Origin: an uncultured Spirochaetota bacterium | Lineage (GTDB): Bacteria; Spirochaetota; Spirochaetia; Treponematales; UBA12059 | Assembly: GCA_937873275.1 (NCBI GenBank) | Contig: CALMRC010000114.1 | Span: 2,666-66,665, forward strand | Length of the DNA stretch: 64,000 nucleotides | Reading direction: 5' to 3' | Made by a program: the position numbers and the translations under genes | In this document: piece by piece, positions 8,439-60,553 of the stretch | How the letters are laid out: the number at the start of each line of letters is the position of its first letter | Numbering within the stretch: the stretch's first letter is position 1 | Notes under the pieces: generated by a model | The model's database searches: none | Seen by the model: only the letters and a program-made list of their open reading frames with translations | Told to the model about the DNA's origin: nothing

Positions 8439-8443
8439 GTAAA

Positions 8444-8516
8444 GCCGAGAAGGAGAATCGAACTCCTGACCTGCGCATTACGAGTGCGCCGCTCTGCCAT
8501 CTGAGCTATCTCGGCG
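8444..8516 (-). tRNA. tRNA-Thr (anticodon CGT), 73 nt, CCA not encoded
   Basis: Hand-folded cloverleaf: acceptor GCCGAGA/TCTCGGC, D stem GCTC/GAGC, anticodon stem GCGCA/TGCGC with loop CTCGTAA, T arm AGGAG-TTCGATT-CTCCT. Confidence 0.95.
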
Positions 8517-8598: not shown

Positions 8599-9165
8599 AT
8601 GAACCAACGAGCGATCCCGCGGGCCCTGCCCGCCTTCCTTGTGGCCGCCCTCGCGTCGGTGATGTTCGTCTCGGCGGGATCCGCGGCGGCGCCGGGCTCC
8701 GAGGCCTCGGACCGGGAGGTCGAGGTCCTGGTGGTCCGCTTTTCCGGGGGAGCCTCGGAGGAACGGTACCGGTACATGGACCTGCCCGCGGCGGCGAGGT
8801 TCCTGTCCCCCGTCGCCTTTGCCGTTCGGGGCGGAACTCTGTCCTTCGAGACGGAGACCTCCTCGGGGTTCCTGGAACGGGGCCGCCGGTCCCTGGCGGG
8901 CCGCCCCGGGGGCGCCCTGGAGCTCGTCTCGGTGCTCCTGGCCTCGGAAACCCGGGAACCCCGACCGTCCCGGACGGTCACGGTGACCTTCACCCTGGAC
9001 GAGCTCCTGGCCCGGGGCGGCCCCTGGTCCGGGGTGCCCGCGGCCTGGGCCTGCCTCCGGGCGGCGTCGGACTCCCGCTGGACCTCCGGAAGGGTCTGGG
9101 CCCGTTCCGCGGACTACGACGCCCGCACGGGCCGGATCACCGTCCGGGTGGCCCTGCTCAAGTGA
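8599..9165 (+). CDS. Hypothetical secreted protein
   Basis: 188-aa ORF with an N-terminal signal-like segment (LPAFLVAALASVMFVSAGSAAA). No family recognised. The 3' end overlaps the addA stop by 8 nt (convergent). Confidence 0.45.
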   Translation: MNQRAIPRALPAFLVAALASVMFVSAGSAAAPGSEASDREVEVLVVRFSGGASEERYRYMDLPAAARFLSPVAFAVRGGTLSFETETSSGFLERGRRSLAGRPGGALELVSVLLASETREPRPSRTVTVTFTLDELLARGGPWSGVPAAWACLRAASDSRWTSGRVWARSADYDARTGRITVRVALLK

Positions 9166-12100
9166 GCCCGGGGGCCGTACGAGCGTCCGGATCGGCGTTG
9201 GAGCCCGGCCTCGGGGGCCCGGCTTCCAAGGCCGCCGCCCGGACCGCGGCCCGTATCAGCCGTTCCGTCTCGCCGGTCTGGGGAATCCGCTCCTCCGCCC
9301 GGGCGTCCCGGAGCCAGAACAGCCAGGTCCGGACCTCGGACCCCGGGAAGAGTTCCCGGCAGGCCGCCCGGTAGACCGCCAGCTGGCCGTCGTACTCGCC
9401 CTCCCGTCGCCGTCGGTCGCTCTTGAAGTCCACCACGTCCGTTCGGTTCCCCCTGCGGAAGCATAGGTCCATGCGTCCCGCGATCGTCGGGGCGGAGCGC
9501 CCTTCCGATTCCGCCCCCGGCCGTCCGCCCGGGGCGTACAGGAAGGGGGCCTCGGCCCGGAGGAACCCGGCCTTCCCGGCCTCGACCGCCGCCCGGCCCA
9601 GGTCCGACTCCAGGAACCTCCCGGCCAGGCTCCGAGCCTCCGCGGCCAGGGCCTCCCGGCGGGCCTCGGGCAGCCGGGAGAGGGCCTCCGCGAAGGCCTC
9701 GTCCCCGGCCCCGGAAGGGTCCAGCCGGGCCTGGACCGCGGCATGGCAGAGGGTCCCGAAGGAGTCTCCCGGGACTTCCTCGGCGAAGGCGTCGGCGCCC
9801 AGGGCCGGCAGATCCTCCCCGGGCGGCTCCGGCCGGCCGTCCCTCCCGTCCTCTTCCCAGGCGTCCCGGACTGCGGTGGCGGATACCTCGGCCCGGTCCC
9901 AGGTCCGCCGGACCGCCCGGGCGGCGTCGTAGAGAGGTGCCGGATCCTCGACCGCCCGGCTCCGTTCGCCGGAGAAGAGTCCCCGGTAGTCCTCCTCGGT
10001 CAGGTCGGGCACCGGAACCTCCCGCACCCGGTCGGAAAGTTCCGGGAACTTGCCGGTTCCCGGGTCCCGCAGGCCGTCCCCCCCGGCCAGGAGCGCGTGG
10101 AAGGAGGCCCCCCGTTTGTCGGCGCTCTCCGGCTCCGTCGCCGCGAAGACCAGGTGGGCGGAGGCCCGGGTGCAGGCGACATAGAAGAGCCGTTTGAGCT
10201 CCGCGGCCTCCTGCTGGGACTCCTCCTCCTTGGCCAGGTCGTAGAAGAGGTTGACGGTCTCGGCCCCGGGATCGTCCCAGGCCTTGAGGTTCAGGGTGAT
10301 CCCGTGCTCCCGGGACAGGTACCAGGCCTTGCCGCCGCCCCCGGACCGTCCCCGGTTCTCCAGGAAGGGAAGGATGACCACCGGGAACTCGAGGCCCTTG
10401 GATTTGTGGACCGTGAGGATCCGCAGGCCCGACCCCGCCTCCCGGGGGGCGTCCAGGTCCGAGAGCCGGTCCGGGGTGCCGGTCAGGGGCTCCAGCTCGG
10501 CCACGAAGGACGCCAGGGCCAGTCCCCGGGCGTCCGCGTCCGCGGCCAGTCGGAAGAGGTAGTCGAAGTGCTCCAGGAAGGGGTGGGCGTCGGGTTTCCG
10601 GACCAGCCCCAGCCGGAGTCCCTCGTCGTACCAGAGGGACCGTACCAGGGTCGAGAGGGGCCGGCGGTCCGCGTCCGACCGCAGGCGTTCCAGGATGTCC
10701 CGGCCCCGGTCGAACCGGGCCGCGTCGTCCGGGGAGAGCCCCGCTGCCTCCCGTGCGGCGGGATCGAAGGGCGGCAGGTCCCGGGCCAGGATCCGCACGA
10801 AGGCGTCGTCGGAAACCCGGACGAAGGGCGAGCGCAGGAAGGCCGCGTAGGCGGGGCCGTCCTCTGGGTGGACGGCCAGCCGGAGGGCCTGGTAGATGTC
10901 GTTGGCCGGGGACTCGGTGAAGAGGCCGCAGACGTCCCCGGCGGAGTAGGGTACCCCGAGGAGGCGGAAGTACTTTTCCAGGAGGTACTGCTTCCCGGTG
11001 CTCCGGAGCAGGACCGCGAAGTCCTCGTACCGGGCGGCCCGCCACCCGGGGCCTCCCGGCGACCCGGGATCCGGGATCCGGAGCTTCCCCCGCTCCACGG
11101 AGTCCCGGACGAAGGAGGCGACCCCGAAGGCCAGGGCCTCGTCGTCGCTCCGGAAACCCTCCCGGTCCCGGGGGGGGCGGCGGGGCTTGACCAGGTAGCG
11201 GATCGAGGGGGTTCCCCCGGGGGCGGGGTCCCGGGACAGGATCGGGGAGAACCGCGCCTCCCAGGGCCGGTCCGCCCCCCCGAGGACCCGTGCGAAAACC
11301 TCGTTGAAGAAATCCACCAGGGCGGGCTCGGAACGGTAGTTCGTGCGCAGGGCCGTACCCCCGGCGCCGAGGTCCTCCGCCAGGCCCCGGAAGACCGAGA
11401 CGTCGGCTCCCCGGAACCGGTAGATGCTCTGCTTCTCGTCCCCCACGAAGAAGAGCTTGTCGGGCTCCAGGTCCCGGGCTTCCGGGATGCCCGGGTCTTC
11501 CCGGTCCGGCCGCTCCGCCAACAGGTAGAGCAGGTCCTTCTGCAGCTCGTCGTCGTCCTGGAACTCGTCGATCATGATGTACCGGAACCGGGTCTTCCAG
11601 GCGCGCCGGATTCCCGGACGACGGGCCAGGAGGTCCACCGCCGCCTCCGCGACGTCCCGGAATCCCATGATCCCGGCCTTCCTCTTGGCTCCCCGCACCC
11701 GGTCCCCGAGCTCGGCCAACAGGCCCAGGACGGAACCCGCCAGGGGCGCCAACCTTTCCATCTCCACGGCCTTGAGGACCCGGCGGGCCGCGTCCCGGGC
11801 GGTCCCGGCGGCCTCCTTTATCCGGGTTTCGGCGTCCGAACGCCCGAAGCCGGACAGGTTGAAGGATGCGACGAGGTCCAGGGCCCCCGCGATCATGACG
11901 GCGGTACAGTTCGCGAAGGTTGTCGGCAGGGTCGCGAAGGCGTCCAGGACGGAGGCGGCCTTGGTGGAGGGGTTCCGGAGCCCGGCGCCCTCCTCCACGG
12001 CGGACCGGGCCGCGTCCAGGATGAGCGCCGCCTGGTCCCGGATCGTCCGCTCCACGGCGTCGGCCTGGAGGCGGAGCATGGCCGGGATGTCCGGGGCGGC

Positions 12101-12631
12101 GGAGGGGGTCCAGAGGCGGCCCGCGGCGTCCGCGAAGAGCTCCTTCCAGGCCCTCTCGAACCCCAGGCGGGAGAAGACCTCCCGGAGGGCGGGATCCTCC
12201 CGGCGTTCCAGGAGGAAGGCCAGGGCCCGGGCTTCGGCGATCCGGCCGCATTCCCCGTCGTCGATCCGGAAGTCCGGGGAATAGCCGTATTCCTGGGCCT
12301 CCGGACGGAGCACCAGGGAGCAGAAGGAGTCCAGGGTGGAGATCTGGGCCTCCGAGAACCGGTCCACCTGCTCCAGGGCCCGGGATTCCCCGGAGGCCAG
12401 GAGTGCCCGGTGGATGCGGCCGTACATCTCCGCCGCGGCCTTGCGGGTGAAGGTCAGGACCAGGATGTTCCGGACGTCCGCCCCCTCCCGCAGGACGAGG
12501 TCCAGGTACCGGGCCGCCAGGACCGTGGTCTTGCCGCTGCCGGCGCCCGCGGAGACGGCACCGTTCCGCCGCAGGCCGACCGCCGCCCTCTGGTCCGGGT
12601 CCAGACGGTCCATCATGGGATTGCCGCTCAT
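9158..12631 (-). CDS. addA: UvrD/Rep-family helicase with C-terminal PD-(D/E)XK nuclease (AddA/RecB-like subunit)
   Basis: Walker A at GAGSGKTTVLAARY, with helicase motifs (LVLTFTRKAA, IMIDEFQD, VHKSKGLEF). The C-terminal nuclease motif is GRMDLCF...VVDFKSD...YDGQLAVY. Confidence 0.85.
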   Translation of the reverse strand: MSGNPMMDRLDPDQRAAVGLRRNGAVSAGAGSGKTTVLAARYLDLVLREGADVRNILVLTFTRKAAAEMYGRIHRALLASGESRALEQVDRFSEAQISTLDSFCSLVLRPEAQEYGYSPDFRIDDGECGRIAEARALAFLLERREDPALREVFSRLGFERAWKELFADAAGRLWTPSAAPDIPAMLRLQADAVERTIRDQAALILDAARSAVEEGAGLRNPSTKAASVLDAFATLPTTFANCTAVMIAGALDLVASFNLSGFGRSDAETRIKEAAGTARDAARRVLKAVEMERLAPLAGSVLGLLAELGDRVRGAKRKAGIMGFRDVAEAAVDLLARRPGIRRAWKTRFRYIMIDEFQDDDELQKDLLYLLAERPDREDPGIPEARDLEPDKLFFVGDEKQSIYRFRGADVSVFRGLAEDLGAGGTALRTNYRSEPALVDFFNEVFARVLGGADRPWEARFSPILSRDPAPGGTPSIRYLVKPRRPPRDREGFRSDDEALAFGVASFVRDSVERGKLRIPDPGSPGGPGWRAARYEDFAVLLRSTGKQYLLEKYFRLLGVPYSAGDVCGLFTESPANDIYQALRLAVHPEDGPAYAAFLRSPFVRVSDDAFVRILARDLPPFDPAAREAAGLSPDDAARFDRGRDILERLRSDADRRPLSTLVRSLWYDEGLRLGLVRKPDAHPFLEHFDYLFRLAADADARGLALASFVAELEPLTGTPDRLSDLDAPREAGSGLRILTVHKSKGLEFPVVILPFLENRGRSGGGGKAWYLSREHGITLNLKAWDDPGAETVNLFYDLAKEEESQQEAAELKRLFYVACTRASAHLVFAATEPESADKRGASFHALLAGGDGLRDPGTGKFPELSDRVREVPVPDLTEEDYRGLFSGERSRAVEDPAPLYDAARAVRRTWDRAEVSATAVRDAWEEDGRDGRPEPPGEDLPALGADAFAEEVPGDSFGTLCHAAVQARLDPSGAGDEAFAEALSRLPEARREALAAEARSLAGRFLESDLGRAAVEAGKAGFLRAEAPFLYAPGGRPGAESEGRSAPTIAGRMDLCFRRGNRTDVVDFKSDRRRREGEYDGQLAVYRAACRELFPGSEVRTWLFWLRDARAEERIPQTGETERLIRAAVRAAALEAGPPRPGSNADPDARTAPGLT

Positions 12632-15303
12632 CCGCCCTCCGTCGCGTAGCCGACGCGGCAGACGGAAGCCCAGCCGCAGGACCCGCAGTCCCTCTCCGCG
12701 GGACGGGGGGTGCGGAAATCCCCCTCCCGGAGCCGCCGGGCCGTGGTCCGCAGGTATTCTTCGAAGACCTCCAGGGCCGGTCCGTAGTCCTCCAGGGTCC
12801 GCACACCCGGGCCCAGGACGTCCAGGGCCTTGGCCTCCTCCAGGGACCAGTACCGGGCCCGGGTGACCGTCCGGCCCTCGGCCTCGCAGAGGAGGACGTA
12901 GGCAGCCATCTGGGGAGCCGCGAGGTTCCCGTCCCCGTCGGGGATCACCTCGGTCTTTTTCGGGATCGAGCGCTTCTTGTAGTCGATGATCGCGTGCTCC
13001 CCGTCCCGGCTCGCCAGCCGATCCAGGCGTCCTACCAGACAGGCGTCCAGGTCCGGGTAGTCCTTTTCCAGGTCACCCTCCAGGCTCTCGATCCCCCAGC
13101 CCCGGAAGGTCCCGGCTTCCTCCCGGAGGAGCCGGGCGATCCGGTCCTCCAGCTTGGGGACATAGGCCTCGAACATGGGACGGAGGAAGGGACCGTGCCG
13201 GGATTCGAAGGCGGGGAGGACGCGGTCCACCGAGGGCCGGACCCAGGAGAGGTATTCCTCCAGGCGGTCCGCGTCGAAGGGACCGGATTCTCCGATCCGC
13301 TCGTAGAGGATCCGGAGGGACTCGTGGGCCATCTCCCCGGCCAGGAGGGCGTCGAAGAATCCCACTCCGGATTTCTCCTCCTCCAGGGCCAACCCCCGGG
13401 CCAGGAGCCAGGCGAAGGGACAGGACAACATCTCCGAAACCTGGGTGGCCGAGAGGCGGAGGCGGCCGTCCGCCCGGCTCGCCCGGGAGAGGACCTCCCG
13501 GCGGGCTTCCGGATCGGCTCGGTCCCGGCGGTAGTCCGAGGCGGGGGTGCCCAGGGAACGCGCCGCGGAACGGAAGGCTCGGACCTGGACCTCCAGGAGA
13601 TCCCGGGGAACGTCCCCGCCCCGCCAGGCCCGTTCCTCCCGGCCCCAGGGATCCGATTCCTTGAGGGCCGCGCCGTCCGGGGGCGGGCCGATCCGGCCCC
13701 CCCGGGAAAACCACGGGAAGGGGAGGTTCCAGCCCCGGAAGCCCTCCACGGAATAGCTGAAGACGGTCCCGTCCCGGGACGCGTAGGCCCGGGCGTAGTC
13801 CTGGGAGGCGTCCCGGTCCGGTAGCCCGAGGCCTTCCTTCTCGTCCTCCCGGAGGCCCGGGGCGGCGACGAAGCGGACCCCCAGGCCCTCCTGGGATGCC
13901 CCGGCCACGTAGTGGCGCCGGACGGCCTGGAGGGCGGAAACCCGGTAGGAGTACACCGGAACCCCCGGGCCCGTGGACTGATGAACGTACCGGAGCTCCG
14001 AGAGGACTCCCCGGAACTGGGAGAAGGCCGTGCCCCGGGGAAGTTCCAGGCCGAGCTCGGACTCCAGCCGGACGTAGGCCACCAGCTCGTCCATGGCCCG
14101 CTGGAAGGACCGTTCGTCCTCCTCGGAGAGGCGGGACTCCTCCAGGAATTCCCGCCGGAAGGCCACGAAGGCCCGGGCCAGGGCGCCGAAATCGCGGGCT
14201 TCCGTGAGCTCCCGGATTCCGGATTTCAACCTGCGGTAGAAGGAATCCAGCCCCGGTTCCGGGACGCCGCAGACCCGGAAGCTTTCCAGCCAGGGATCCA
14301 CCCGGCGGCCCTCCGCGACGTAGGGGGCGTAGGCGTGACGGCGTATTCCGAACCGGACCAGGGACCGCGCCCGCTCCGGCTCCCTCCAGGGCAGGAAGCG
14401 GTCCAGGAGGAGGGCGGTGACCGACTCCAGATCGAAGTCCCGTTCGGCGCAGGTCCCCAGGGCGCCCAGGAACCGGCCGACCGGCTGCCGCGCCAGGGGA
14501 AGACCGCTCCGGATCTCCGCGGGGACCCCCGCCAGGGCGGCGGCCTTCTCCACCCAGGGGGCGGTCTCGTCCAGGTCCGGAACCGTGACCGCGATATCCT
14601 CGGGACGGATCCCCGAGTCCAGGTCCCGGGCGACGGACAGGAAGATCCACCGAAACTCCTCGTGGAGGTTCGGGAACTCCGCCAGGGGAGGGCCCGCCGG
14701 TACGTCCGGGATCTCGAGGATCCGGATCCCCGGGGACGCGGCAAGGGCCTCCCGGTACTCCTCGAAGTCCCGGGCCAGTTCCGGGCAGACCAGGATGTGC
14801 CGGCGATCCGCCGCCGGTTCGGGGAGGGGCACCCAGGAGGGCTCGTAGAGGCCCCGATCCGCCAGGAAGGCGGCGTACCTCCGGTGGAGGGCCGCCAGGT
14901 CCCGGACCTTGCCTCCCCCGTCCGTCCGCCCGCCCCGGTCCGCGATCCTGCCGAGGGCCGGCAGGATCCCCGCGAGGAAGGGGACGTGGCCCGCGTACTC
15001 CCCCCGGAACTCCGGCCGGATCAGGGCGCCCAGGAAGGGGGAGCGGCTGTTCTCCTCCAGGACCGAGACGGCCCAGATCCTGCGGATCCGGTCGTCCGCG
15101 GGACGTCCCTCCTCCCTACGGGAGAAGAGGCCGGCCTTGAAGGTGTCCCAGCCCAGGAAGCGGTCCGAGAAGAGGGCCCGGGAGGGACCCAGGTCCAGGG
15201 CCCTTCGGGCCCAGGACGCGGCGGCCACCTCGCTGGGAAAGACGAAGGAGACCGAGGGGTCGGGCAAGGCGGCGGCGACGGCCGATTCGAGGAAGTCCGG
15301 CAT
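12628..15303 (-). CDS. addB: AddB-like PD-(D/E)XK nuclease subunit with C-terminal Fe-S cysteine cluster
   Basis: 4-nt overlap with addA. Nuclease motif is GRLDRLA...AIIDYKK. Cys pattern is SCPF...DCGSCGWASVC (C...C-x2-C-x5-C). I found no Walker A motif. Confidence 0.7.
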   Translation of the reverse strand: MPDFLESAVAAALPDPSVSFVFPSEVAAASWARRALDLGPSRALFSDRFLGWDTFKAGLFSRREEGRPADDRIRRIWAVSVLEENSRSPFLGALIRPEFRGEYAGHVPFLAGILPALGRIADRGGRTDGGGKVRDLAALHRRYAAFLADRGLYEPSWVPLPEPAADRRHILVCPELARDFEEYREALAASPGIRILEIPDVPAGPPLAEFPNLHEEFRWIFLSVARDLDSGIRPEDIAVTVPDLDETAPWVEKAAALAGVPAEIRSGLPLARQPVGRFLGALGTCAERDFDLESVTALLLDRFLPWREPERARSLVRFGIRRHAYAPYVAEGRRVDPWLESFRVCGVPEPGLDSFYRRLKSGIRELTEARDFGALARAFVAFRREFLEESRLSEEDERSFQRAMDELVAYVRLESELGLELPRGTAFSQFRGVLSELRYVHQSTGPGVPVYSYRVSALQAVRRHYVAGASQEGLGVRFVAAPGLREDEKEGLGLPDRDASQDYARAYASRDGTVFSYSVEGFRGWNLPFPWFSRGGRIGPPPDGAALKESDPWGREERAWRGGDVPRDLLEVQVRAFRSAARSLGTPASDYRRDRADPEARREVLSRASRADGRLRLSATQVSEMLSCPFAWLLARGLALEEEKSGVGFFDALLAGEMAHESLRILYERIGESGPFDADRLEEYLSWVRPSVDRVLPAFESRHGPFLRPMFEAYVPKLEDRIARLLREEAGTFRGWGIESLEGDLEKDYPDLDACLVGRLDRLASRDGEHAIIDYKKRSIPKKTEVIPDGDGNLAAPQMAAYVLLCEAEGRTVTRARYWSLEEAKALDVLGPGVRTLEDYGPALEVFEEYLRTTARRLREGDFRTPRPAERDCGSCGWASVCRVGYATEGG

Positions 15304-15310
15304 AGGTCAG

Positions 15311-15450
15311 GGAACCGTGAACCGTGGACAGTGGACCGTGAACCGAGGCGACGTTTCCGCCCGGATCCCGAGAATCGCTAATGCATCGAATGGTTCAAGT
15401 ATCCTGCCGTACATTCCCGTCCACCGTTCACCGTCTACCGTCCACGGTCC
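15311..15450. repeat. Heptamer-array inverted-repeat element, copy A (GTGRACN family)
   Basis: Left arm GGAACC GTGAACC GTGGACA GTGGACC GTGAACC (15311-15348), 67-nt core, right arm CGTCCAC CGTTCAC CGTCTAC CGTCCAC GGTCC (15416-15450). Confidence 0.8.
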
Positions 15451-15947
15451 GCCCACGCCCCCTCCACCGCGGCCACGTACATCCGGTGCCAGTCCCCGTT
15501 GGCGTAGTTCTTCAGCACCGCGGGGTCCACGATATGGCTGGGGCCGAGGTCCTGGGCGTAGAGCTTGCGGCAGGACAGGACGAGCCTTGCCTGGCGGAAG
15601 GAGACGACCCCCGGCTCGGGCTCGAAGGGTTCGAGGCCCGTGAGGGCCGCCTTGTCCGCGTCCCTCCCGGAGACGCTCCCGCATTTGGAAAGGATCTCCC
15701 TCCGTTCCTCGGGGAAAAAGGAGAGGGTGAAGCGGTCGCCCCGGTTCATGAACCCGAAGGTGTGTCGGGAGGGCCGCACGAAGACGAAGGCGACCCGCTG
15801 GTGCCAGAGGACCCCCAGGCCGCCCCAGCTGGCGGTCATGGTGTTCCAGGAGGAGGGATCCCCGGCGGTCACCAGCATCCAGTCCTTTCCGATGAGCTTC
15901 CAGGGGTTGTCCGTCAGGTTCTCGATGTCGATGGGCTCGAAGGGCAT
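15435..15947 (-). CDS. Flavin reductase-like (flavoredoxin-type) domain protein
   Basis: ATG at 15947 (MPFEPIDIENL...) preceded by AAGGAG. WMLVTAGDPSSWNTMTASWGG is typical of the flavin reductase-like fold. The upstream part of ORF 15435..16085 lies in repeat copy B. Confidence 0.65.
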   Translation of the reverse strand: MPFEPIDIENLTDNPWKLIGKDWMLVTAGDPSSWNTMTASWGGLGVLWHQRVAFVFVRPSRHTFGFMNRGDRFTLSFFPEERREILSKCGSVSGRDADKAALTGLEPFEPEPGVVSFRQARLVLSCRKLYAQDLGPSHIVDPAVLKNYANGDWHRMYVAAVEGAWADRGR

Positions 15948-15962
15948 GGTCACTCCTTGGTT

Positions 15963-16092
15963 CGGTGGTCCGTGGTCGGGGGACGGTGGACGGAGGGTAC
16001 TTCGGAATTCGGCGGCCGGCAAGACTCGGGCGGTCCCCGCGTCCGTGACCCGCCGTCGCGCTCCCGTCCCCGGTTTACAGTCCACCGTCCAC
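15963..16092. repeat. Heptamer-array inverted-repeat element, copy B (GTGRACN family, diverged)
   Basis: Left arm GTGGTCC GTGGTCG GGGGACG GTGGACG (15963-15997), 63-nt core, right arm CTCCCGTCCCCGGTTTACA GTCCAC CGTCCAC (16061-16092). Confidence 0.7.
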
Positions 16093-19000
16093 TTTGTATT
16101 CCGACTTCACCTCCATCTTCCGGAGGTCGGCGTATAGCTTCATCGCCGCGGTTTCCCGGGACTTGTAGGTCCCGCCGCCGGGAGCGAAGAGGACCCCCAG
16201 GGACGCGGCCGCGGCGAAGAGCCCGAAGCCCTCCGCCCGGAACCACTCGATCCCGTCCCAGGTGTTCACGCCCAGGATCCGGCGTCCGTCCTCGTCGGCG
16301 GTCCAGGCTTTCCAGAGGGTCCGGGCGGAGGGCCCGTCCGGGGCAAGGGCCGCCGCGGTCTTGGCCCCGTTGGCCAGGCGCCAGGCCTCGTCGCCGGGGA
16401 CCCCGGCGGCCTGCAGGGCTTCCCGGAGCTTCCGGTCCAGGCACCAGTGGTCCGCCAGGGCCCGGGCGTCCTCGCCCCGGGCCCGGGGGCCGAGCAGGGC
16501 CCGGAGGGAGTCCAGGACGACCAGGGCCGCGGCGGTCTGGGCCGCCGCCGGGAAGGCCGCGGTCAAGGCGGCGGGGAAGGAATCCGGTCCGCCCGACCTG
16601 ACTTCCTGCAGGAAGGACGCAAGGTCCCGGAACCCGGAGACGAGGGCGGCCGCGGTACGTTTCACGGGGTCCGTCGGGACGGTTCCGGACGGCTGCTTGT
16701 TCGCGGCCGTCGTGCCTTCCGGAACGGGCGTCGCCCGGGCTCCCTCCGATTTTCCCGGCGAGGGCTCGGCGCCCCCGTCGAAGTCCTCCAGGAAGACCAG
16801 GGCGGTCCGGGCGAAGGCCCGGGACCGTTCCGGGAGGGACTCGAGGAGGGATGCGACGGCCGGGGGCGGGACGGCGGTTTTTTTCGGCGCGCCCTTCCGG
16901 CTCCCCGCCGGGGCTTCCGCCGTCGACGGTTCCGGGTTCGGAGCCGGACCGGGAATCCCCGCCTCCGGTCCGGGGACCGGGGTAACCCGGAGGGCCGCCA
17001 GGAACTCCGGGGACAGCAGGGCGGCGAAAGCCGCGTAGAGCTCCGCCAGGTCGATGTCCTGGAGGGCCGCGGACAGGTCCGGAACCCCGGCGCCGCCCAG
17101 GTTCCGGCAGAGGGTCGCGTAGCGGCCCGTAGCGTCGTCCTCGATCTCGTGGGCGTCCAGGAAGACCTGGCTCTCGTACCCGTTCAGGGCGAGGTGGAGT
17201 CCCCGGGCCGCGACGTCCTTGGAGGGCCGGAGGTACCAGAGTTCGCTCCGCTGCTCCCGGAAGACCAGGAAGCGGCCGTCCCGGCCGGTGAGTCCCAGGG
17301 CATCCGAGAGGGACCGCTGGACATGGCGCTTGGTTCCGTCCGGGAGGATCTCCGCGTAGTAGGCGGAGTCCTTGATCCACCCCGAGGCCCGCTCGTAGGC
17401 GTTGTTGAAGGCCACCAGGGCGGCCTCCCCTCCGGACCGGTTGGAGTAGGCGAAGACGTTCTGGTTGACCTGGCCCCGCTCTTCCCAAAGGTCGTAGAGC
17501 AGGAAGTCCTCCACCCCCGAGAAGAGGTACCGGCGCTTGAGGAGGGGGAAGATCTCCCGCTCGTGCCGGGCCACCAGTCCCGCGTCGGCCTTCTCATCCC
17601 GGTAGGCCCGGCGGTACTCCATGCCGTACTTCTCCTCGAAACCCTCGACCTGGCCGTGGCCGAACATGGGCAGCCCCGGCAGGGTGGCCATCAGGGTGCA
17701 GACCCCGAAGTACTTGTCCCCCTTGCCGAACTGGGCCACCGCGGTCTCCTCGTCCGGGTTGTTCAGGAAGTTCACGAAGCGCTTGAGGATGCGCTTGTCG
17801 AACTCCTGGGTGTTCTTGATGGTCTCCTTGAACTTCCCGTTCTCCTCCTTCTTGAGCATGTTCATGAAGGCGGAGTTGTAGACCCGGTGCATGCCCAGGG
17901 TCCGGACGAAGTAGCCTTCCATCATCCAGAAGGCCTCGGCCAAAAGCAGGGTGTCCGGGGCGTCCCGGGCGCAGCGGTCCACGATCTGGCGCCAGAACTC
18001 CTCGGGCATCCGCTCGTCGAAGTCCGGCCGGGAGAGGGCGTGCTCCGCCCGCGAGGCTATGTCGCCGCCCGATCCGGGCTCGGGGTACCAGAGCCGGCGG
18101 AAGTGCCGCTTGGCCAGGACCATGGCCGCGTCGAAGCGGATGATGGGGAAGACCCGGGCCACGTGGAGGATCCGCTCCGCCACCGCCTCCCGGGCCTCGG
18201 GCTTGAGGAAATCGATCTGAGCGGTGTCGTTCCAGGGCATCCCGGTCCCGTCGTTCCCGTGGTAGACGAAGCGGGTATCCCCGGTGCGGAAATCCGTCCG
18301 CTTGAACACCACCGCCGCGTCGGAGCGGTTGTAGTAGTGGTCCTCCAGCCAGATCCCGACGGAGGGATCTCCGGAGAGGTTTTCCCCGTTGAAGGTGTAG
18401 CCCGGGAAGGGCGGGTGGCCCGCCTGGACGAAGAGGTCCGGCCGGTTCCGGACCCACTCGGAGTCGATGCCCGTGTGGTTGGGCACCATATCCGCCGCCA
18501 GCCGGATCCCCCGCCAGGCGCAGCGCTCCCGGAGGTTGTGCAGGGAGGACCACCCCCCCAGCTCCCCGGCGATCTCGTAGTCGAAGAGGCTGTAGGCGCT
18601 GGCCGCCGCCTCGGGGTTCCCGCAGAGCTGCTTGATCCGGCGGCTCGCGTCGGATCGCTCCCACAGGCCGATGAGCCACAGGGCGTTGAAGCCCCGGGTG
18701 GCCAGGAGGTCCAGCTCCTCGTCGGGGATGAGGTCCAGGCGGTCGATGGTCCGGCCGTAGGCGACGGAGAGCTGGTGAAGCCACACGAGGACGCTCTTGG
18801 CCATCATCACGACCCGGGGCATCCAGTCCTTGTCCTCCGTGAACCGCTCGTACTCGTGCTCCATGCCCTCGTAGACGTAGACTCGGGAGGGGCCGGGTCC
18901 CGGGAAGAAGGGCTTCTCCTCCTCCTTGATCATGTCCAGGCCGCCCAGGATCCGGGCCAGCAAGGGACCCAGGAGGAGGCCCCAGTTCCGGCGCATGTAG

Positions 19001-19743
19001 TCCAGCTGGCCGGGCAGGGAGTAGGGGGAGGCCTCCACGGGACAGCGGAGGAGCTTGACCAGGGGGAGACGCTCCGGACCGAAGGGCGGAAGGCCGTCGA
19101 AGAAGGTCTCCAGGCTTTCCAGGGCCGGCAGGTACTTCGTCGCGCCCCGGAGGGCCGAGTCGTCGAAGAGCTCCCGGAAGGGTTCGAAGGCGGGATTCTC
19201 GTTGGCCAGCTTCAGGAGCAGGAGTTCCTCCAGGGCCAGGGCCTTGTTGGGGACCCCGTCGGTCGAACCGGCGAGCCAGTCGGCCTCGTCCGCCTTGTTC
19301 CGGTAGACGTCCCGGGGCGGGAAGTCCCGGGTGAAGGCCAGGAGCAGGGCGTCGGTCTGGGCCTTGCCCACGTCCTTCTCCACCGCGGCCAGGGCCCGGA
19401 CGAAGGCGTCCGGGGCGACGGCGGCCCGGAACCGGGCGCAGACGAAGTGGAGGATCTCGTCCACCAGGCCCATCGCGTTGAGGCGTCCGGCCTTGACGGA
19501 GCGGTCCGGGTGGGCCTGGACGGCGGGGCGGGAGTTCAGGGACCGGGCCAGGACCCGGGAGGCGTAGAAATTGGGGAAGATTACGTTGCCGGAGAGCTGG
19601 AAGAGGGATTCGTCCAGCCCGTGTTCCGCCCGGAGGGAGCGGCGCACGTGGAACTCCATCGCCGGGCCGCCGGCCCGGGCCTCCGGCTCGTTCCCGCCGT
19701 CGAATGCCGAGAGCCTCAGGACGATACCGTAGCGCTGGGTCAT
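16075..19743 (-). CDS. Large alpha-amylase family (GH13-like) glycoside hydrolase with Ala-rich C-terminal extension
   Basis: 1222-aa ORF. FNALWLIGLWERS...YSLFDYEI...GIRLAADMVPNHTG...IRFDAAM...LLAEAFW are GH13 conserved regions. The function of the C-terminal ~350 aa is unknown. Confidence 0.75.
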   Translation of the reverse strand: MTQRYGIVLRLSAFDGGNEPEARAGGPAMEFHVRRSLRAEHGLDESLFQLSGNVIFPNFYASRVLARSLNSRPAVQAHPDRSVKAGRLNAMGLVDEILHFVCARFRAAVAPDAFVRALAAVEKDVGKAQTDALLLAFTRDFPPRDVYRNKADEADWLAGSTDGVPNKALALEELLLLKLANENPAFEPFRELFDDSALRGATKYLPALESLETFFDGLPPFGPERLPLVKLLRCPVEASPYSLPGQLDYMRRNWGLLLGPLLARILGGLDMIKEEEKPFFPGPGPSRVYVYEGMEHEYERFTEDKDWMPRVVMMAKSVLVWLHQLSVAYGRTIDRLDLIPDEELDLLATRGFNALWLIGLWERSDASRRIKQLCGNPEAAASAYSLFDYEIAGELGGWSSLHNLRERCAWRGIRLAADMVPNHTGIDSEWVRNRPDLFVQAGHPPFPGYTFNGENLSGDPSVGIWLEDHYYNRSDAAVVFKRTDFRTGDTRFVYHGNDGTGMPWNDTAQIDFLKPEAREAVAERILHVARVFPIIRFDAAMVLAKRHFRRLWYPEPGSGGDIASRAEHALSRPDFDERMPEEFWRQIVDRCARDAPDTLLLAEAFWMMEGYFVRTLGMHRVYNSAFMNMLKKEENGKFKETIKNTQEFDKRILKRFVNFLNNPDEETAVAQFGKGDKYFGVCTLMATLPGLPMFGHGQVEGFEEKYGMEYRRAYRDEKADAGLVARHEREIFPLLKRRYLFSGVEDFLLYDLWEERGQVNQNVFAYSNRSGGEAALVAFNNAYERASGWIKDSAYYAEILPDGTKRHVQRSLSDALGLTGRDGRFLVFREQRSELWYLRPSKDVAARGLHLALNGYESQVFLDAHEIEDDATGRYATLCRNLGGAGVPDLSAALQDIDLAELYAAFAALLSPEFLAALRVTPVPGPEAGIPGPAPNPEPSTAEAPAGSRKGAPKKTAVPPPAVASLLESLPERSRAFARTALVFLEDFDGGAEPSPGKSEGARATPVPEGTTAANKQPSGTVPTDPVKRTAAALVSGFRDLASFLQEVRSGGPDSFPAALTAAFPAAAQTAAALVVLDSLRALLGPRARGEDARALADHWCLDRKLREALQAAGVPGDEAWRLANGAKTAAALAPDGPSARTLWKAWTADEDGRRILGVNTWDGIEWFRAEGFGLFAAAASLGVLFAPGGGTYKSRETAAMKLYADLRKMEVKSEYKVDGGL

Positions 19744-30235: not shown

Positions 30236-30977
30236 AACCGGGGTCTCCCCGGGAGCCTTCAACATGGGCCTGGACGAGGCGATCCTGGGCGCCGTGGCGG
30301 AGGGCCGCCAGCCTCCCACCCTGCGCCTGTACGGATGGAATCCCCCCACCGTGACCCTGGGATACTTCCAGGGACTGGACGAGGAGGTGGACCGGGAGGC
30401 CTGCGCCCGGATGGGCGTGGATGTCGTCCGGCGGATCACCGGGGGCGGGGCGGTCTTCCACGACGCGGAGCTGACCTATAGCATCGTCCTGCCCGAGAGC
30501 CATCCCCGGGCCCGGCCGGGCATCCTGGACTCCTACCGGGTTCTCTGCGCGGGGGTCGTGGAAGGCTTGGCCCGGCTCGGCCTGTCCGGGGAGTTCGCGC
30601 CCATCAACGACGTCCTCGTGGGGGGACGGAAGGTCTCCGGAAACGCCCAGACCCGGAAGCGGGGCTGCATCCTCCAGCACGGGACCATCCTCCTGGACGT
30701 GGACGTGGACCGGATGTTCGCCCTTCTCAAGGTGCCCTCGGAGAAGATGAAGGGGAAGCTGATCGAGGACGTGAAGCAGAGGGTCACGAGCCTGCGTCAC
30801 CAGCTCGGCCGGAGCGTGGGCCTTCCCGAGGCGGCCGCCGCCTTCGCCGCGGGGTTCGCCGCCGCCCTGGACGTCGTCCTGGACCCCGCGCAGCCCTCCC
30901 CGGAGGAGCTCGAGGAGGGCCGCCGTATTGCACGGGAGAAGTACGGCACCGAGGCCTGGACAGGGAGAAGGAAGTGA
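30216..30977 (+). CDS. lplA: Lipoate-protein ligase / octanoyltransferase catalytic domain protein (LplA/LipM family)
   Basis: LRLYGWNPPTVTLGYFQ, RRITGGGAVFHD and GGRKVSGNAQ (catalytic Lys region). At 253 aa it has the catalytic domain only. Confidence 0.8.
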   Translation: MTFRLLETGVSPGAFNMGLDEAILGAVAEGRQPPTLRLYGWNPPTVTLGYFQGLDEEVDREACARMGVDVVRRITGGGAVFHDAELTYSIVLPESHPRARPGILDSYRVLCAGVVEGLARLGLSGEFAPINDVLVGGRKVSGNAQTRKRGCILQHGTILLDVDVDRMFALLKVPSEKMKGKLIEDVKQRVTSLRHQLGRSVGLPEAAAAFAAGFAAALDVVLDPAQPSPEELEEGRRIAREKYGTEAWTGRRK

Positions 30978-31092
30978 ATGGGTGAATAGTGAATCGTGAA
31001 TAGGACGGTCGGGGTAATAGCTATGAACTCCATCGGCCGGCTCTTCACCCATTCACCCATTCACTTATTCACCTATTCACCTATTCACCTAC
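30974..31092. repeat. Short-repeat inverted-array element, copy E (GTGAATN / ATTCACCY variant)
   Basis: Left arm GTGAATG GGTGAAT AGTGAAT CGTGAAT AGG (30974-31004), ~39-nt core, right arm TTCACCC ATTCACCC ATTCACTT ATTCACCT ATTCACCT ATTCACCT (31044-31092). Confidence 0.8.
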
Positions 31093-32862: not shown

Positions 32863-34206
32863 ATGCTCGAACGGCTCACCCAGAAATTCGGGGACGTCCT
32901 CCGCACCATCGGCGGCAAGTCGTCCATCAGCGAAAAGAACATCGAGGAGGCGGTCGAGCAGATCAAGCTGGCCCTCCTGGAGGCGGACGTCAACCTTCGG
33001 GTGGTCCGCCGCTTCGTCAATTCCACCATCGAGGAAGCCAAGGGCGAGAAGGTCCTCCGCGCGGTCTCCCCGGGCCAGCAGTTCGTCAAGATCGTCCACG
33101 ACAAGATGGTCGCCCTCCTGGGGGACACCCGCCAGGAACTCCAGCTCCGGGGCCCCGACGTCGTCTCGGTAATCCTCCTCCTGGGCCTCCAGGGCTCCGG
33201 AAAGACCACGACTGCGGCCAAGCTGGCCCATCATCTCAAGGGCAAGGGACGAAAGGTCCTCCTGGCCGCCTGCGACCTGGTGCGCCCCGCCGCGGTGGAA
33301 CAGCTCTCGGTCCTGGGATCGCAGATCGGCGTCGAGGTCTACAAGGAAGACGGCGCCAAGGACCCCGTGAAGGTGGCGCGTGCGGCCCTGGATCGAGCGA
33401 AAAAGGGGCTCTTCGACACCCTGATCGTGGATACCGCGGGCCGCCTGGAGATCGACGAGGCGATGATGGACCAGCTGGTCCGGATCCGGGACGCCGTCAA
33501 GCCCGACGAGGCCCTCCTGGTGGCGGACGCCATGACGGGCCAGGCCGCGGTGGACATCGCCAAGGTCTTCGACGAGAAGGTGGGCGTGTCCGGCGTCATA
33601 CTCTCCAAGTTCGATTCCGACGCCCGGGGCGGGGCGGCCCTGTCCCTGAAGAGCGTGACCGGGAAGGCCGTCAAGTTCATCGGCGTCTCCGAGCGTCCCG
33701 ACGGCCTGGAGCCCTTCCATCCGGACCGGATCGCCGGCCGAATCCTGGGCATGGGCGACATCGTCTCCCTGGTGGAGAAGGCCCAGGAGCAGTTCGACGC
33801 CCGGGAGGCCGAGGAGCTCCAGCGTAAGATGTCCGAGGAGGGGCTCACCCTGGAGGACTACCTGGACCAGCTCCGGCGCATGAAGAAGATGGGCTCCCTG
33901 AAGGGGGTCCTGGACATGATCCCCGGGGCCGCGGGCCAGATTTCGGAGGATCAGATCGACGAGGGAGAGCTCCGGCGGGAGGAAGCCATCCTGACCTCCA
34001 TGACTCGGAAGGAACGGGCCAACTATCTGATCATCGGGCCGTCCCGTCGCTCCCGGATCGCCCGGGGCTCCGGGACCTCCGTGGCGGAGGTGGCCCGGCT
34101 CCTCAAGAAGTTCGAGAAGACCCGGACCATGATGAAGAAGATGGCCCGGGGCCGGGGCCGGGAAGCCCAGGCGTGGGCGAAGATGTCGGTGAACGGTGGA
34201 CGGTGA
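32863..34206 (+). CDS. ffh: Signal recognition particle protein Ffh (SRP54)
   Basis: GLQGSGKTTTAAKLA, DTAGRL and LSKFDSDARGG, followed by a Met-rich M domain. Confidence 0.95.
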   Translation: MLERLTQKFGDVLRTIGGKSSISEKNIEEAVEQIKLALLEADVNLRVVRRFVNSTIEEAKGEKVLRAVSPGQQFVKIVHDKMVALLGDTRQELQLRGPDVVSVILLLGLQGSGKTTTAAKLAHHLKGKGRKVLLAACDLVRPAAVEQLSVLGSQIGVEVYKEDGAKDPVKVARAALDRAKKGLFDTLIVDTAGRLEIDEAMMDQLVRIRDAVKPDEALLVADAMTGQAAVDIAKVFDEKVGVSGVILSKFDSDARGGAALSLKSVTGKAVKFIGVSERPDGLEPFHPDRIAGRILGMGDIVSLVEKAQEQFDAREAEELQRKMSEEGLTLEDYLDQLRRMKKMGSLKGVLDMIPGAAGQISEDQIDEGELRREEAILTSMTRKERANYLIIGPSRRSRIARGSGTSVAEVARLLKKFEKTRTMMKKMARGRGREAQAWAKMSVNGGR

Positions 34207-34319
34207 ACAGTGGACGGAAGCGACACGATGGTTCGGTCAGAAATCCCGCCAAGGCGGGGTGTGTTTCCGCAGTCTTCTGCCATTTCCGATCACTGTCCAC
34301 CGACCACCGTCCACGGACC
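34187..34319. repeat. Heptamer-array inverted-repeat element, copy C (GTGRACN family)
   Basis: Left arm CG GTGAACG GTGGACG GTGAACA GTGGACG G (34187-34217), 68-nt core with a CCCGCC-AA-GGCGGG hairpin, right arm CCGATCACT GTCCAC CGACCAC CGTCCAC GGACC (34286-34319). Confidence 0.8.
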
Positions 34320-34322
34320 TAC

Positions 34323-34351
34323 TTTACACTCCCCGCCCTCATCGCTATACT
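34323..34351 (+). promoter_or_regulatory. Sigma70-type promoter candidate for rpmB
   Basis: TTTACA (34323-34328), 17-nt spacer, TATACT (34346-34351), 35 nt upstream of the rpmB ATG. Confidence 0.55.
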
Positions 34352-35194: not shown

Positions 35195-35302
35195 ATGGAA
35201 CTCCTTGTGGTTCACTCAGTCCCGATCCTCAAGGATCGGTGCCGGTTTCCTTCCGACACCTTATATATTGCAATCGCCGTGCCAAGTCGAATTTTTTGAA
35301 AA

Positions 35303-35450
35303 AATCAGAACAGGATTTTCATGATGTACAGGATTAACAAGATTAAGAATCTAAATATTTATAGAAATGGAATAAAAATATAAACATGAGAGAGAATAAG
35401 AATCATGTTAATCTATATGAAATCATGATCATCCTGTTCTGATTATCCTG
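35303..35450. repeat. AT-rich imperfect palindromic element, copy F (ACAGGAT/ACAAGAT family)
   Basis: AATCAGAACAGGATTTTCATGAT (35303-35325) pairs with ATCATGATCATCCTGTTCTGATT (35422-35444), including 12 perfect bp TCAGAACAGGAT/ATCCTGTTCTGA. Inner arms are also related (GATTAACAAGATT vs GATTAACATGATT). Confidence 0.7.
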
Positions 35451-53127: not shown

Positions 53128-53256
53128 GTAAACGGTGGACGGTGGACGGTGGACGGAAATGTGAGACCGTACGCGGGCGCATCCCACGCTGATGCGGGGA
53201 ACGGGACGGTCCTCGTGTGCCGTCCCCGTCCACGTACCACCGTTCACGGTTCACCG
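53128..53256. repeat. Heptamer-array inverted-repeat element, copy D (GTGRACN family, cleanest copy)
   Basis: GTAAACG GTGGACG GTGGACG GTGGACG G (53128-53156), 64-nt core with nested hairpins, then CGTCCC CGTCCAC GTACCAC CGTTCAC GGTTCAC CG (53221-53256). Confidence 0.85.
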
Positions 53257-60349: not shown

Positions 60350-60553
60350 CCACGGAGTACACGGAGGGCACGGAGAAAGCGATCCCGGAACCATAGATCC
60401 AACAGGATGTACAGGATGGATCAAGATTTACAAGATGAAAACGGATGAATCGATCCATCTTTGATTTAATTATCTTGTTCATCTTTTTATTGATCTTGTC
60501 CATCTTGTTGGTACGATGGTTCCGTAGTTTTCTCCTCTCCGTGATCTCCGTGG
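60350..60553. repeat. 204-nt imperfect palindromic element, copy G (CACGGAG plus ACAGGAT/ACAAGAT repeats)
   Basis: The arms start with CCACGGAG and end with CTCCGTGG, and the apex is ATCGAT at 60449-60454. Blocks conserved between the arms are CCACGGAG..CACGGAG, GAGAAA, CGGAACCAT and CCAACARGATG. There are two 7-nt indels between the arms. Confidence 0.8.

Follow-up and report, generated by a model that had tools for sequence, protein, structure and literature searches.

A spirochaete family of palindromic gene-end elements built from inward-facing GTGRACN heptamer arrays

The stretch of DNA analysed here (the window) comprises 64,000 nucleotides of an uncultured Spirochaetota bacterium (GenBank assembly GCA_937873275.1, contig CALMRC010000114.1, positions 2,666 to 66,665 of the forward strand) and contains a family of elements of about 130 nt with a palindromic plan, in which two arms of tandem GTGRACN units face each other. 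The elements are real, and on balance they are probably non-autonomous dispersed palindromic insertion elements, similar to repetitive extragenic palindromes (REP) and miniature inverted-repeat transposable elements (MITE), with slippage-prone heptamer arms, which sit on gene ends and are carried in transcripts as a generic hairpin. The evidence for this is the dispersal of the elements at unrelated loci and across related genomes, the comparison of close strains, where the same junction is found empty, filled or occupied by another heptamer family, and the landing spots themselves, which are the last codons or the first bases past a gene, tight operon junctions included.

The four elements A, B, C and D (Table 1) each have a core of 64-75 nt between two GTGRACN arrays, whose 4-5 units point inward. 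Allowing at most one mismatch, GTGRACNGTGRAC matches the window 26 times, when shuffling predicts 1.1 matches and none of 100 shuffles reaches 26; 21 of these 26 matches fall inside A-D, and Tandem Repeats Finder (TRF) detected period-7 arrays at all eight arms. The plan of heptamers, core and inverse heptamers, which an initial annotation of this DNA had described in four copies, was confirmed by direct reading, by this enrichment and by TRF. The count of four in 64 kb stands for GTGRACN units, but a fifth element of the same plan, E, made of GTGAAT units, had been missed. Element E, whose left arm has a period of 7 and whose right arm has a period of 8, lies between convergent lplA-like and SLT genes. 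Units point inward in the five elements of the window, an arrangement that survives reverse complementation and is distinct from an outward-pointing one. The imperfect pairing of the arms in a genuine multi-copy intergenic family was also upheld, as was the shared polarity of A(+), C(+) and D(-) with conserved junctions, to which B(-) can now be added. The copy density amounts to five elements (A-E) per 64 kb in the window, and any genome-wide copy number is an extrapolation from this value.

The relation of the elements to coding sequences is a close one. The earlier claim that all copies are located 3' of a gene holds in a stronger form, because the stop codons lie inside GTRRAC units: those of murB, ffh and the flavin reductase, amylase-like and lplA-like genes are all within a unit, that is, in five of five window copies. 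Among the 74 elements of the fetched loci with both flanks callable, 31 lay between convergent genes, 41 between tandem genes and 2 between divergent ones. The facing stop codon is found at a median of 3 nt from the outer edge of the arm (interquartile range -6.5 to 15), and the median distance to the element on sides facing a start codon is 70 nt. The stop codon was within the array for 51 of 109 genes, always at hexamer positions 2-4 (G-TRR-AC), with 21, 11, 12 and 5 cases in units 1, 2, 3 and 4, so that the arrays encode short C-terminal tails such as ..GGR, ..DRGR and ..VDGGL just before the stop. The elements have no fixed orientation with respect to their neighbouring genes, and both orientations occur in tandem contexts. 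Selection for stop-containing units beside genes was considered and found unsupported, since such units amount to 40% in proximal and 36% in distal arms, without any positional gradient; in view of this lack of enrichment, we take the stops in three frames to be a reason why gene ends tolerate the elements and not a selected function. Elements B and A occupy two junctions of a tightly packed gene string on the minus strand (9158-19743), which is composed of the amylase-like, flavin reductase, addB-like (PD-(D/E)XK) and addA-like (UvrD helicase-nuclease) genes.

Related strains offered a direct view of these junctions. The spacer between ffh and rpmB was compared among strains with Ffh proteins at least 90% identical: the window and L245 (labels of this kind designate loci in other genomes and contigs) carry a GTGGAC-type element, L240 and L241 a GTGAATAG-type (GTGAAT-type) one with 4 vs 3 units between the two samples, L243 and L244 ordinary GC hairpins, and L242 a short spacer with the element absent. 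The variable segment is bounded exactly by the last ffh codons on one side and by the -35 box of the rpmB promoter (34323-34351) on the other. Between L245 and the window, a C-G pair in the apex hairpin of element C becomes T-A, one compensatory change. The GTGAATAG arrays of L240 (2832-2872) and L241 (1565-1597), both from the same study, differ by one unit (8 nt), which demonstrates that the number of units can change within a population.

Between the amylase-like stop and the flavin reductase ATG (site B), the window and L250 are filled, L248 and L251 are empty, and L249 keeps a stub of four units. The empty alleles read ..GTGGACGGTGGACTGTAA directly followed by CCAAGGAGTGACCATG, and the window and L250 have an insertion of about 113 nt precisely at the boundary of these two sequences; the two outer units of B arm 2, which code for the amylase-like terminus VDGGL, are retained in element-less strains. 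From the flavin reductase stop to the addB-like ATG (site A), we find a GTGGAC-type element in the window (5-unit left arm) and in L251 (3 units), a GTGAATAG-type one in L248, a third family, CAGGAGT/CCTGAGT, in L250, and an empty allele in L249, which reads ..GCGGTCCGCTGACCTATG and corresponds to stop, 3 nt and ATG. In L250 (1640-1765), CAGGAGT on the left faces (CCTGAGT)x9 on the right, and the coding tail becomes ..ARSQESGGR before the stop. The flanking genes of L248 and L251 are 97.5-98.6% identical, with different families at site A. The presence of three unrelated families at this single junction requires gains or replacements. At the D site, the distal arm has three units in the window vs two in L252, whose core is about 75% identical, and the orthologs of both D and A deviate in unit number by one or two. 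At the junctions of the empty alleles there are short direct repeats (CGG, AACC, GGAG), which, together with the stubs, indicate that some of these alleles are probably deletions; deletion is the expected fate of long palindromes. In other strains, the GTGAAT family to which element E belongs takes the place of the GTGGAC type at both the ffh and the flavin-reductase junction. On the JGI contig Ga0116153_10000590 (L003, L251), the ffh locus equals that of the window and the flavin-reductase locus is only 77-92% identical, a mosaic relatedness that suggests inter-strain recombination.

Oriented alike, the cores begin with ..GCGAC.. and finish with ..CAYTYCC, and in the opposite orientation ACGG(A/G)A(A/G)TG starts every window copy A-D. 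The core had been described as shuffled, and the exchanged order of the GTTTCCGC and GATGGTTC blocks between cores A and C is indeed real, but the overall picture is rather one of divergence within a family whose centre has a constant length and bears a consensus. Copies oriented to start with ACGGAAATG, drawn from four spirochaete metagenome-assembled genomes (MAGs), the window and about 10 metagenome contigs, measure 84-85 nt from innermost unit to innermost unit. The 25 spirochaete-type copies gave a nearly gapless alignment of 88 columns with a clear consensus, GTGGACGGAAATGGC..C.G.ACGCGG.GGA...C.ACGCTT..GCGT.GGA..CG.CCGCG..CT....TCACTTCCGTCCAC, and a conserved centre of about 71 nt, GGAAATG..ACGCGG.GGA..ACGC-N4-GCG..CCGCG..CACTTCC. 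A hidden Markov model built from seven other spirochaete cores only found exactly two matches in the window, cores C and D, each with E of about 0.1 in about 1 Mb; D fits the family consensus, and A and B are more diverged members. Judged by these alignments, the centre appears to be a family and not noise. A consensus common to loci and species argues for copying over local origin. Cores from different loci cluster by BLAST in Victivallales, with 7 copies, and in Desulfohalobiaceae, with 6, which shows that whole elements have dispersed. Core homology across phyla was rejected: the cores from other phyla are unrelated, and the window organism is itself a spirochaete.

A plausible sequence of events can be drawn for such an insertion element. 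New copies would arise through some trans-acting activity, or through recombination favouring existing gene-end hairpins or arrays. A gene entering an arm would be stopped within a few codons, because a period of 7 is not a multiple of 3 and GTGAAC, GTAGAC and GTAAAC carry TGA, TAG and TAA, so that gene ends would tolerate insertion. After insertion, the element would be co-transcribed and form a mismatched stem of about 30 bp on either strand, whose role would at most be that of a 3'-end or intercistronic hairpin with context-dependent effects (a partial terminator or mRNA stabiliser) in the manner of REP and ERIC (enterobacterial repetitive intergenic consensus) sequences, and not as an RNA gene. 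Arrays would then lengthen or shorten via replication slippage, and the whole element could be lost by deletion between short direct repeats apposed by the palindrome; the stub arrays left behind would in many cases continue to code for a C-terminal tail and stop.

Several observations weigh against this reading. No mobilising gene was found among the main open reading frames (ORFs) of the 64-kb window and no recurrent neighbour gene near the 113 loci among the matches listed from other genomes (see below), and no convincing target-site duplication was found at the junctions; the mobilising step is one that we infer. The four window cores are too diverged to be linked by BLAST, and recent copying within the window genome is therefore unsupported. 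The empty alleles retain array-like stubs, so gain and loss cannot always be polarised. Moreover, the GT-RR-AC hexamer is kept while cores drift, which hints at a sequence-specific constraint, for example a binding protein, that a selfish repeat does not supply. Finally, the gene calls behind the context statistics come from an ORF heuristic.

In the search for a mobilising factor, Pfam scans of the main ORFs of the window, a few of which had no match, revealed no transposase, REP-associated tyrosine transposase (RAYT), reverse transcriptase or integrase, in agreement with what the initial annotation had stated for the first three. Neighbours among the matches listed belong just to large housekeeping families (ABC ATPases, kinases and the like), and no array pair encloses a gene among the 113 loci, a limited sampling. 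The comparison of filled and empty alleles allows a duplication of AA, of CGG or none at all, and such short matches also belong to the arm sequence; the TA-like flanks in Victivallales are explained by the N7 base of the unit itself. A metagenome scan gave no match for a donor of the recently swapped element of L248, in a collection without these samples. No related autonomous partner with the same ends appeared in a limited sampling, in contrast to what MITEs would lead one to expect; the inverted arms, small size and similar copies at unrelated loci are MITE-like traits. A REP head, GTAG or CGTC as part of a 20-40 bp palindrome, was not present in the elements, where CGTC arises incidentally when N7 is C or G. 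Integron attC sites were also rejected: the units misfit the RYYYAAC/GTTRRRY core sites, there is no integrase in the window, and the flanking genes are housekeeping ones (ffh, rpmB, murB, addAB-like), not cassette ORFs.

Folding analyses brought up two further explanations. Either strand of elements C, D and E folds into a long hairpin with mismatches (z -5 to -6), and folding is weaker for A and B (z -1.3 to -2.8). If the elements were a structured non-coding RNA (a small RNA or a cis-acting 3'UTR motif), the conserved core would be the functional part, and the repeats might bind a multimeric RNA-binding factor such as Csp, S1 or a HutP-like protein. A constant-length centre with a conserved apex hairpin (NCGC-N4-GCGN') fits this idea, as does the compensatory change between orthologs described above, and heptamer-binding RNA chaperones have been proposed for the TAACTGA repeats (PMC4679880). 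A hand-drawn three-helix structure pairs 81.6% of the cells in the 25-sequence alignment, in comparison with 31-41% with slid partners. However, covariation in the same alignment stays at shuffle level (0.148 vs a shuffle mean of 0.142, with 156 of 500 shuffles reaching the observed value), so that the pairing comes from the palindromic consensus and not from compensatory change. RNAalifold, run on a first alignment, recovered the arm helix alone, and core-only folding gave a median z of -0.76, with z < -2 in just 31% of cores. Mirrored arm variants were absent at every register (38% vs 34-42%), and no strand preference in folding energy was seen in 22 oriented copies (10 vs 11, p = 0.74), where the strand-specific folding of the window (4 of 4) was not upheld. 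No promoter of their own was found, the elements are dispensable between strains and they occur in both orientations relative to genes. No Rfam family matches the elements, in line with the check suggested initially: at the gathering threshold, the whole window contains only a tRNA, and a permissive scan of D gave solely spurious microRNA-hairpin matches (E >= 0.28). As the sole Rfam match, this tRNA gene is located at 8443-8515 on the minus strand. The absence of covariation, mirrored variants and strand bias, together with the two orientations, makes a dedicated strand-specific structured RNA unlikely, and for the non-coding RNA explanation as a whole we see a very slim chance. The early doubt about a simple RNA hairpin was thus borne out by unmirrored arms, missing covariation, symmetric strands and unfixed orientation. 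A generic hairpin on whichever strand is transcribed is possible.

Strong folding on both strands is also what would be expected of dedicated factor-independent, often bidirectional terminators that arose at their present sites and build and resize a long GC-rich stem by slippage of the heptamer arms. The location of the elements right after stops, their enrichment between convergent genes and the case of element C, which ends 4-9 nt before the rpmB promoter where L243/L244 hold an ordinary GC hairpin, agree with such a role. There is, however, no U-tract past the stems, and a terminator scan calls none at C or E. Moreover, A and B sit in operon junctions (stop-RBS-ATG, RBS being the ribosome-binding site) of 3 nt and 13 nt, where a strong terminator would silence the downstream addB/addA-like genes. 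Whole cores are replaced and not remodelled, and the consensus common to loci and species argues for copying. Altogether, an origin as terminators seems improbable to us.

As another explanation, the hexamers could be sites of a sequence-specific protein polymerising along 7-bp repeats, with the arrays working as gene-end roadblocks, topological barriers or nucleoid anchors; the possibility of a protein-bound, iteron-like array had been raised in the initial annotation. In favour of it, GT-RR-AC is kept at positions 1, 2, 5 and 6 in every arm while cores diverge, the arrays are polar with all units inward and prefer about 4-5 units, arm variants are unmirrored, and the hexamer spacer may be 7, 8, 9 or 10 nt, with a period of 7 in one arm of element E and of 8 in its second arm. 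The omega repressor, a ribbon-helix-helix protein, polymerises cooperatively on WATCACW heptads in direct or inverted orientation, and the EbfC/YbaB nucleoid protein family binds GTnAC in Borrelia. The contiguous omega heptads of plasmid pSM19035, bound cooperatively, share TCAC with GTYCAC, and a comparable binding in the window is putative; unlike our elements, they occupy plasmid promoter and centromere regions, are contiguous and lack a 70-nt core. On the other hand, 7-bp spacing is known for few protein folds only, and no candidate gene emerged. A single protein cannot account for the class, given the many unrelated units found both in the same genomes and in others (GTGAAT, CAGGAGT, ACARGAT, AGTTATC, GGATTGC). 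Presence or absence and family swaps in near-identical strains fit a dispensable element better, and we consider the protein-binding arrays an unlikely answer.

The elements are not confined to the four loci noticed at first, and relatives exist in other spirochaete genomes and in metagenomes: the same family was found in related spirochaete MAGs and metagenome contigs, and a metagenome scan for it gave 29 stretches, about 10 of them true members. The window Ffh carries the NCBI annotation Spirochaetia/Spirochaetales bacterium and clusters with Treponema sp. proteins, and the source metagenomes are those of anaerobic digesters. A scan with the pattern GTGGACNGTGRAC-N55-85-GTYCACNGTYCAC over one genome per species of the GTDB database revealed at least 113 stretches, when chance would give about 1 match (an estimate under uniform base composition). 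Among the matches listed, at least 12 phyla are represented, and several loci per genome occur in Victivallales RGIG3456, Treponema AS27yjCOA_177, Spirochaetota PPR_0593, a Desulfohalobiaceae MAG and a Gemmatimonadetes MAG. The 309 arrays of this set contain the hexamers GTGGAC (761), GTGAAC (297), GTAGAC (102) and GTTGAC (52); the unit spacing is 7 in 1093 of 1207 cases, with spacings of 8-10 occurring too, and arrays of 4 units are the most frequent, followed by those of 5. Convergent array pairs number 131, vs 4 apparently divergent ones that correspond to neighbouring elements. In a one-arm viral sample, which is unbiased, the convergent and divergent arrangements stood at about 6 vs 1, and viral-contig scans gave one contig for each, too few for a comparison. 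The outward-pointing polarity exists as a family too, occurring twice in one viral contig. These outward arrangements (GTCCAC then GTGGAC arrays) are at L081 6612-6717 and L247 10213-10300 (viral contig IMGVR_UViG_3300036786_000120). A special role of GTGGAC was weakened by TRF, which at the matched loci found many other 7-nt units, often as inverted pairs (AGTTATC/TGATAAC, CAGTCGG/GCCGACT, GGATTGC/AATCCGC, AATATCC/TTGGATA, TCAGTGA/CACTGAT), with period 7 outweighing 6, 8 and 9. In variants from Acidobacteriota and Proteobacteria (L134, L142, L237), GTGGAC hexamers are spaced by 9-10 nt; the spacers of L237 are exactly mirrored between arms, giving a perfect palindrome, whereas period-7 arms are unmirrored.

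This diversity allows a bolder proposal, which we advance as rather doubtful. Inward arrays of short non-triplet units, mostly of 7 nt, around a small palindromic core could constitute a widespread and hitherto unrecognised class of mobile gene-end cassettes in bacteria, moved or exchanged by a dedicated machinery that recognises the arrays and homes to stop-proximal hairpins. Its members would be the spirochaete GTGGAC, GTGAAT, CAGGAGT and ACARGAT families, the GGGAATC arrays of Xanthomonas and the Geobacter classes. If true, it would explain both the replacement of families at one junction and the same unit in at least 12 phyla.

The architecture is indeed not new. That the repeats match no described family holds for their sequence, but the arrangement has been described in Xanthomonas (PMC4692102) and Geobacter metallireducens (PMC2700814). 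The GGGAATC arrays of Xanthomonas (Rehm et al. 2015, PLoS One, PMC4692102) prefer about 4 units, form 70-75 convergent inverted pairs per genome, are intergenic and transcribed, lie <50 bp from stops, seldom occur between divergent ORFs and differ in how many units they contain. They share with our elements the tandem heptamers, convergent pairs, stop proximity, divergent rarity and genome-wide spread, and differ in unit sequence and in that a conserved core is unreported there; the strain-level analysis of insertion and replacement is given here only. The same arrays were read as G-quadruplex formers, with quadruplexes obtained in vitro (PMC4692102), an interpretation also given to Nostoc GGGNATC arrays. 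Applied to the window, it finds some agreement in the four units per arm, in GG tracts of GGTGGACGG that could form two-tetrad quadruplexes and in a genomic context as reported for Xanthomonas. It is nonetheless extremely unlikely, as about 40% of the units (GTGAAC, GTAGAC, GTAAAC) have no GG tract, quadruplexes are impossible for the sibling families GTGAAT and ACARGAT, and the complementary arm would compete as a duplex.

In G. metallireducens (Aklujkar et al. 2009, PMC2700814), three classes of paired arrays of 3-5 octa- or heptanucleotides lie on opposite strands with a variable spacer, between genes and inside operons such as proBA, with several classes per genome. Presented as putative global regulator binding sites (classes 1-3), they were guessed to be sites for IHF (integration host factor) or HU, and the insertion sequence (IS) elements ISGme8/9 lie at a fixed distance (PMC2700814). 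Their units differ (GTTGCTYN, TCTCCGTS, MTYCTGA), and no IS association is seen with the spirochaete elements. The TAACTGA direct heptamers of Beggiatoaceae, Cyanobacteria and Bacteroidetes also span distant phyla with no known transfer mechanism (MacGregor 2015, PMC4679880). Like the short tandemly repeated repetitive (STRR) heptamers of cyanobacteria, they resemble our elements as intergenic arrays of 2-6 units (up to 43); unlike these, they are nearly always direct, lie mostly just upstream of starts and have no core. The REP effects on mRNA stability or termination are context-dependent, according to a recent preprint (bioRxiv 10.64898/2026.03.23.713779). REP, the bacterial interspersed mosaic elements (BIME) made of them and ERIC (also intergenic repeat units, IRU) are likewise extragenic imperfect palindromes at gene 3' ends or intercistronic positions, which are transcribed together with their genes, lie in either orientation and are polymorphic between strains. 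Different palindromic families (BIME/ERIC) occupy the same intergenic site among E. coli strains. REP sequences, however, measure 20-40 bp, carry GTAG or CGTC as their head and are associated with RAYT transposases, whereas ours have tandem heptamer arms and no RAYT was found; ERIC measures about 127 bp and contains no tandem sub-repeats.

The architecture is thus already known yet unexplained, and as far as the literature can be searched, the GTGRACN family, its 71-nt centre and its allele dynamics are undescribed; a literal search of the literature for the sequence returned primers only. The class has been little studied, and the interest of the case is moderate, limited by the known architecture. 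An excess of heptamers in intergenic bacterial DNA has been noted in Xanthomonas, Nostoc, Geobacter and Beggiatoa and never explained, and this spirochaete lineage offers a clean natural experiment, with several families on one plan, a conserved centre and sharp filled, empty or swapped alleles between L248 and L251, whose flanks are about 98% identical. The elements rewrite the C-terminal tails and stops of essential genes such as ffh and murB. If a mobilising or binding factor exists, the alleles point to the exact places to search for it; if there is none, the case is a record of the turnover of palindromic repeats at gene ends and of the variation of protein tails that comes with it. At a practical level, the arrays break assemblies, shift gene-end annotation and serve as strain markers.

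Table 1. Heptamer-array elements of the window and neighbouring features (window coordinates; stops and starts are those of the flanking genes)
Feature	Position	Strand	Sequence or content	Relation to genes
Element A	15310-15452			
A arm 1	15310-15343	+	GGGAACC GTGAACC GTGGACA GTGGACC GTGAACC	edge 7 nt from addB-like gene start (15303)
A core	15344-15418	unassigned	diverged; self-structure not significant (z +1.3)	
A arm 2	15419-15452	-	5 units	flavin reductase stop TAG (15435-15437) inside GTAGAC unit
Element B	15963-16092			
B arm 1, degenerate	15963-15993	+	GGTGGTC CGTGGTC GGGGGAC GGTGGAC GG	edge 12 nt from flavin reductase RBS and ATG
B core	15994-16065			
B arm 2	16066-16092	-	GTGGACG GTGGACT GTAAACC GGGGAC	amylase-like stop TAA (16075-16077) inside GTAAAC unit
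Element E, sibling family	30973-31091		(GTGAATN)x4, 40-nt core, (TTCACCYA)x6	lplA-like stop TGA (30975-30977) inside first unit
Element C	34189-34314			
C arm 1	34189-34215	+	GTGAACG GTGGACG GTGAACA GTGGAC	ffh stop TGA (34204-34206) inside third unit
C core	34216-34287	-	GGAAATG..CCCGCC-TT-GGCGGG..GCTTCC	
C arm 2	34288-34314	-	4 units	
rpmB promoter-like site	34323-34351	+	TTTACA-17-TATACT	4-9 nt past element C
Element D	53128-53254			
D arm 1	53128-53155	+	GTAAACG + 3 x GTGGACG	distal to murB; faces Na+/H+ exchanger gene start at 53089
D core, 64 nt	53156-53219	+	GAAATG..ACGCGGGCG..CACGC-TGAT-GCG..	
D arm 2, plus-strand text	53220-53254		CCGTCCC CGTCCAC GTACCAC CGTTCAC GGTTCAC	
D arm 2	53220-53254	-	GTGAACC GTGAACG GTGGTAC GTGGACG GGGACGG	murB stop TGA (53244-53246) inside second unit

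Other arrays of the window have longer units. A nested element at 60351-60553, in the spacer upstream of a gene with a cNMP-binding domain (cNMP, cyclic nucleoside monophosphate), is made of 9-10-nt units, in which an outer (CACGGAGNN)x3 faces (CTCCGTG)x2 and an inner (ACARGATGN)x5 faces (CATCYTGTN)x4. At 35300-35450, a 9-nt ACAGGAT/ACAAGAT unit faces ATCCTGT within an AT-rich spacer. The ACARGAT unit may represent a further family of the same architectural class, and it also occurs in other spirochaete loci, at L243/L244 (3931-3968), L153 (815-850), L217 (2708-2743) and L230 (1833-1868).

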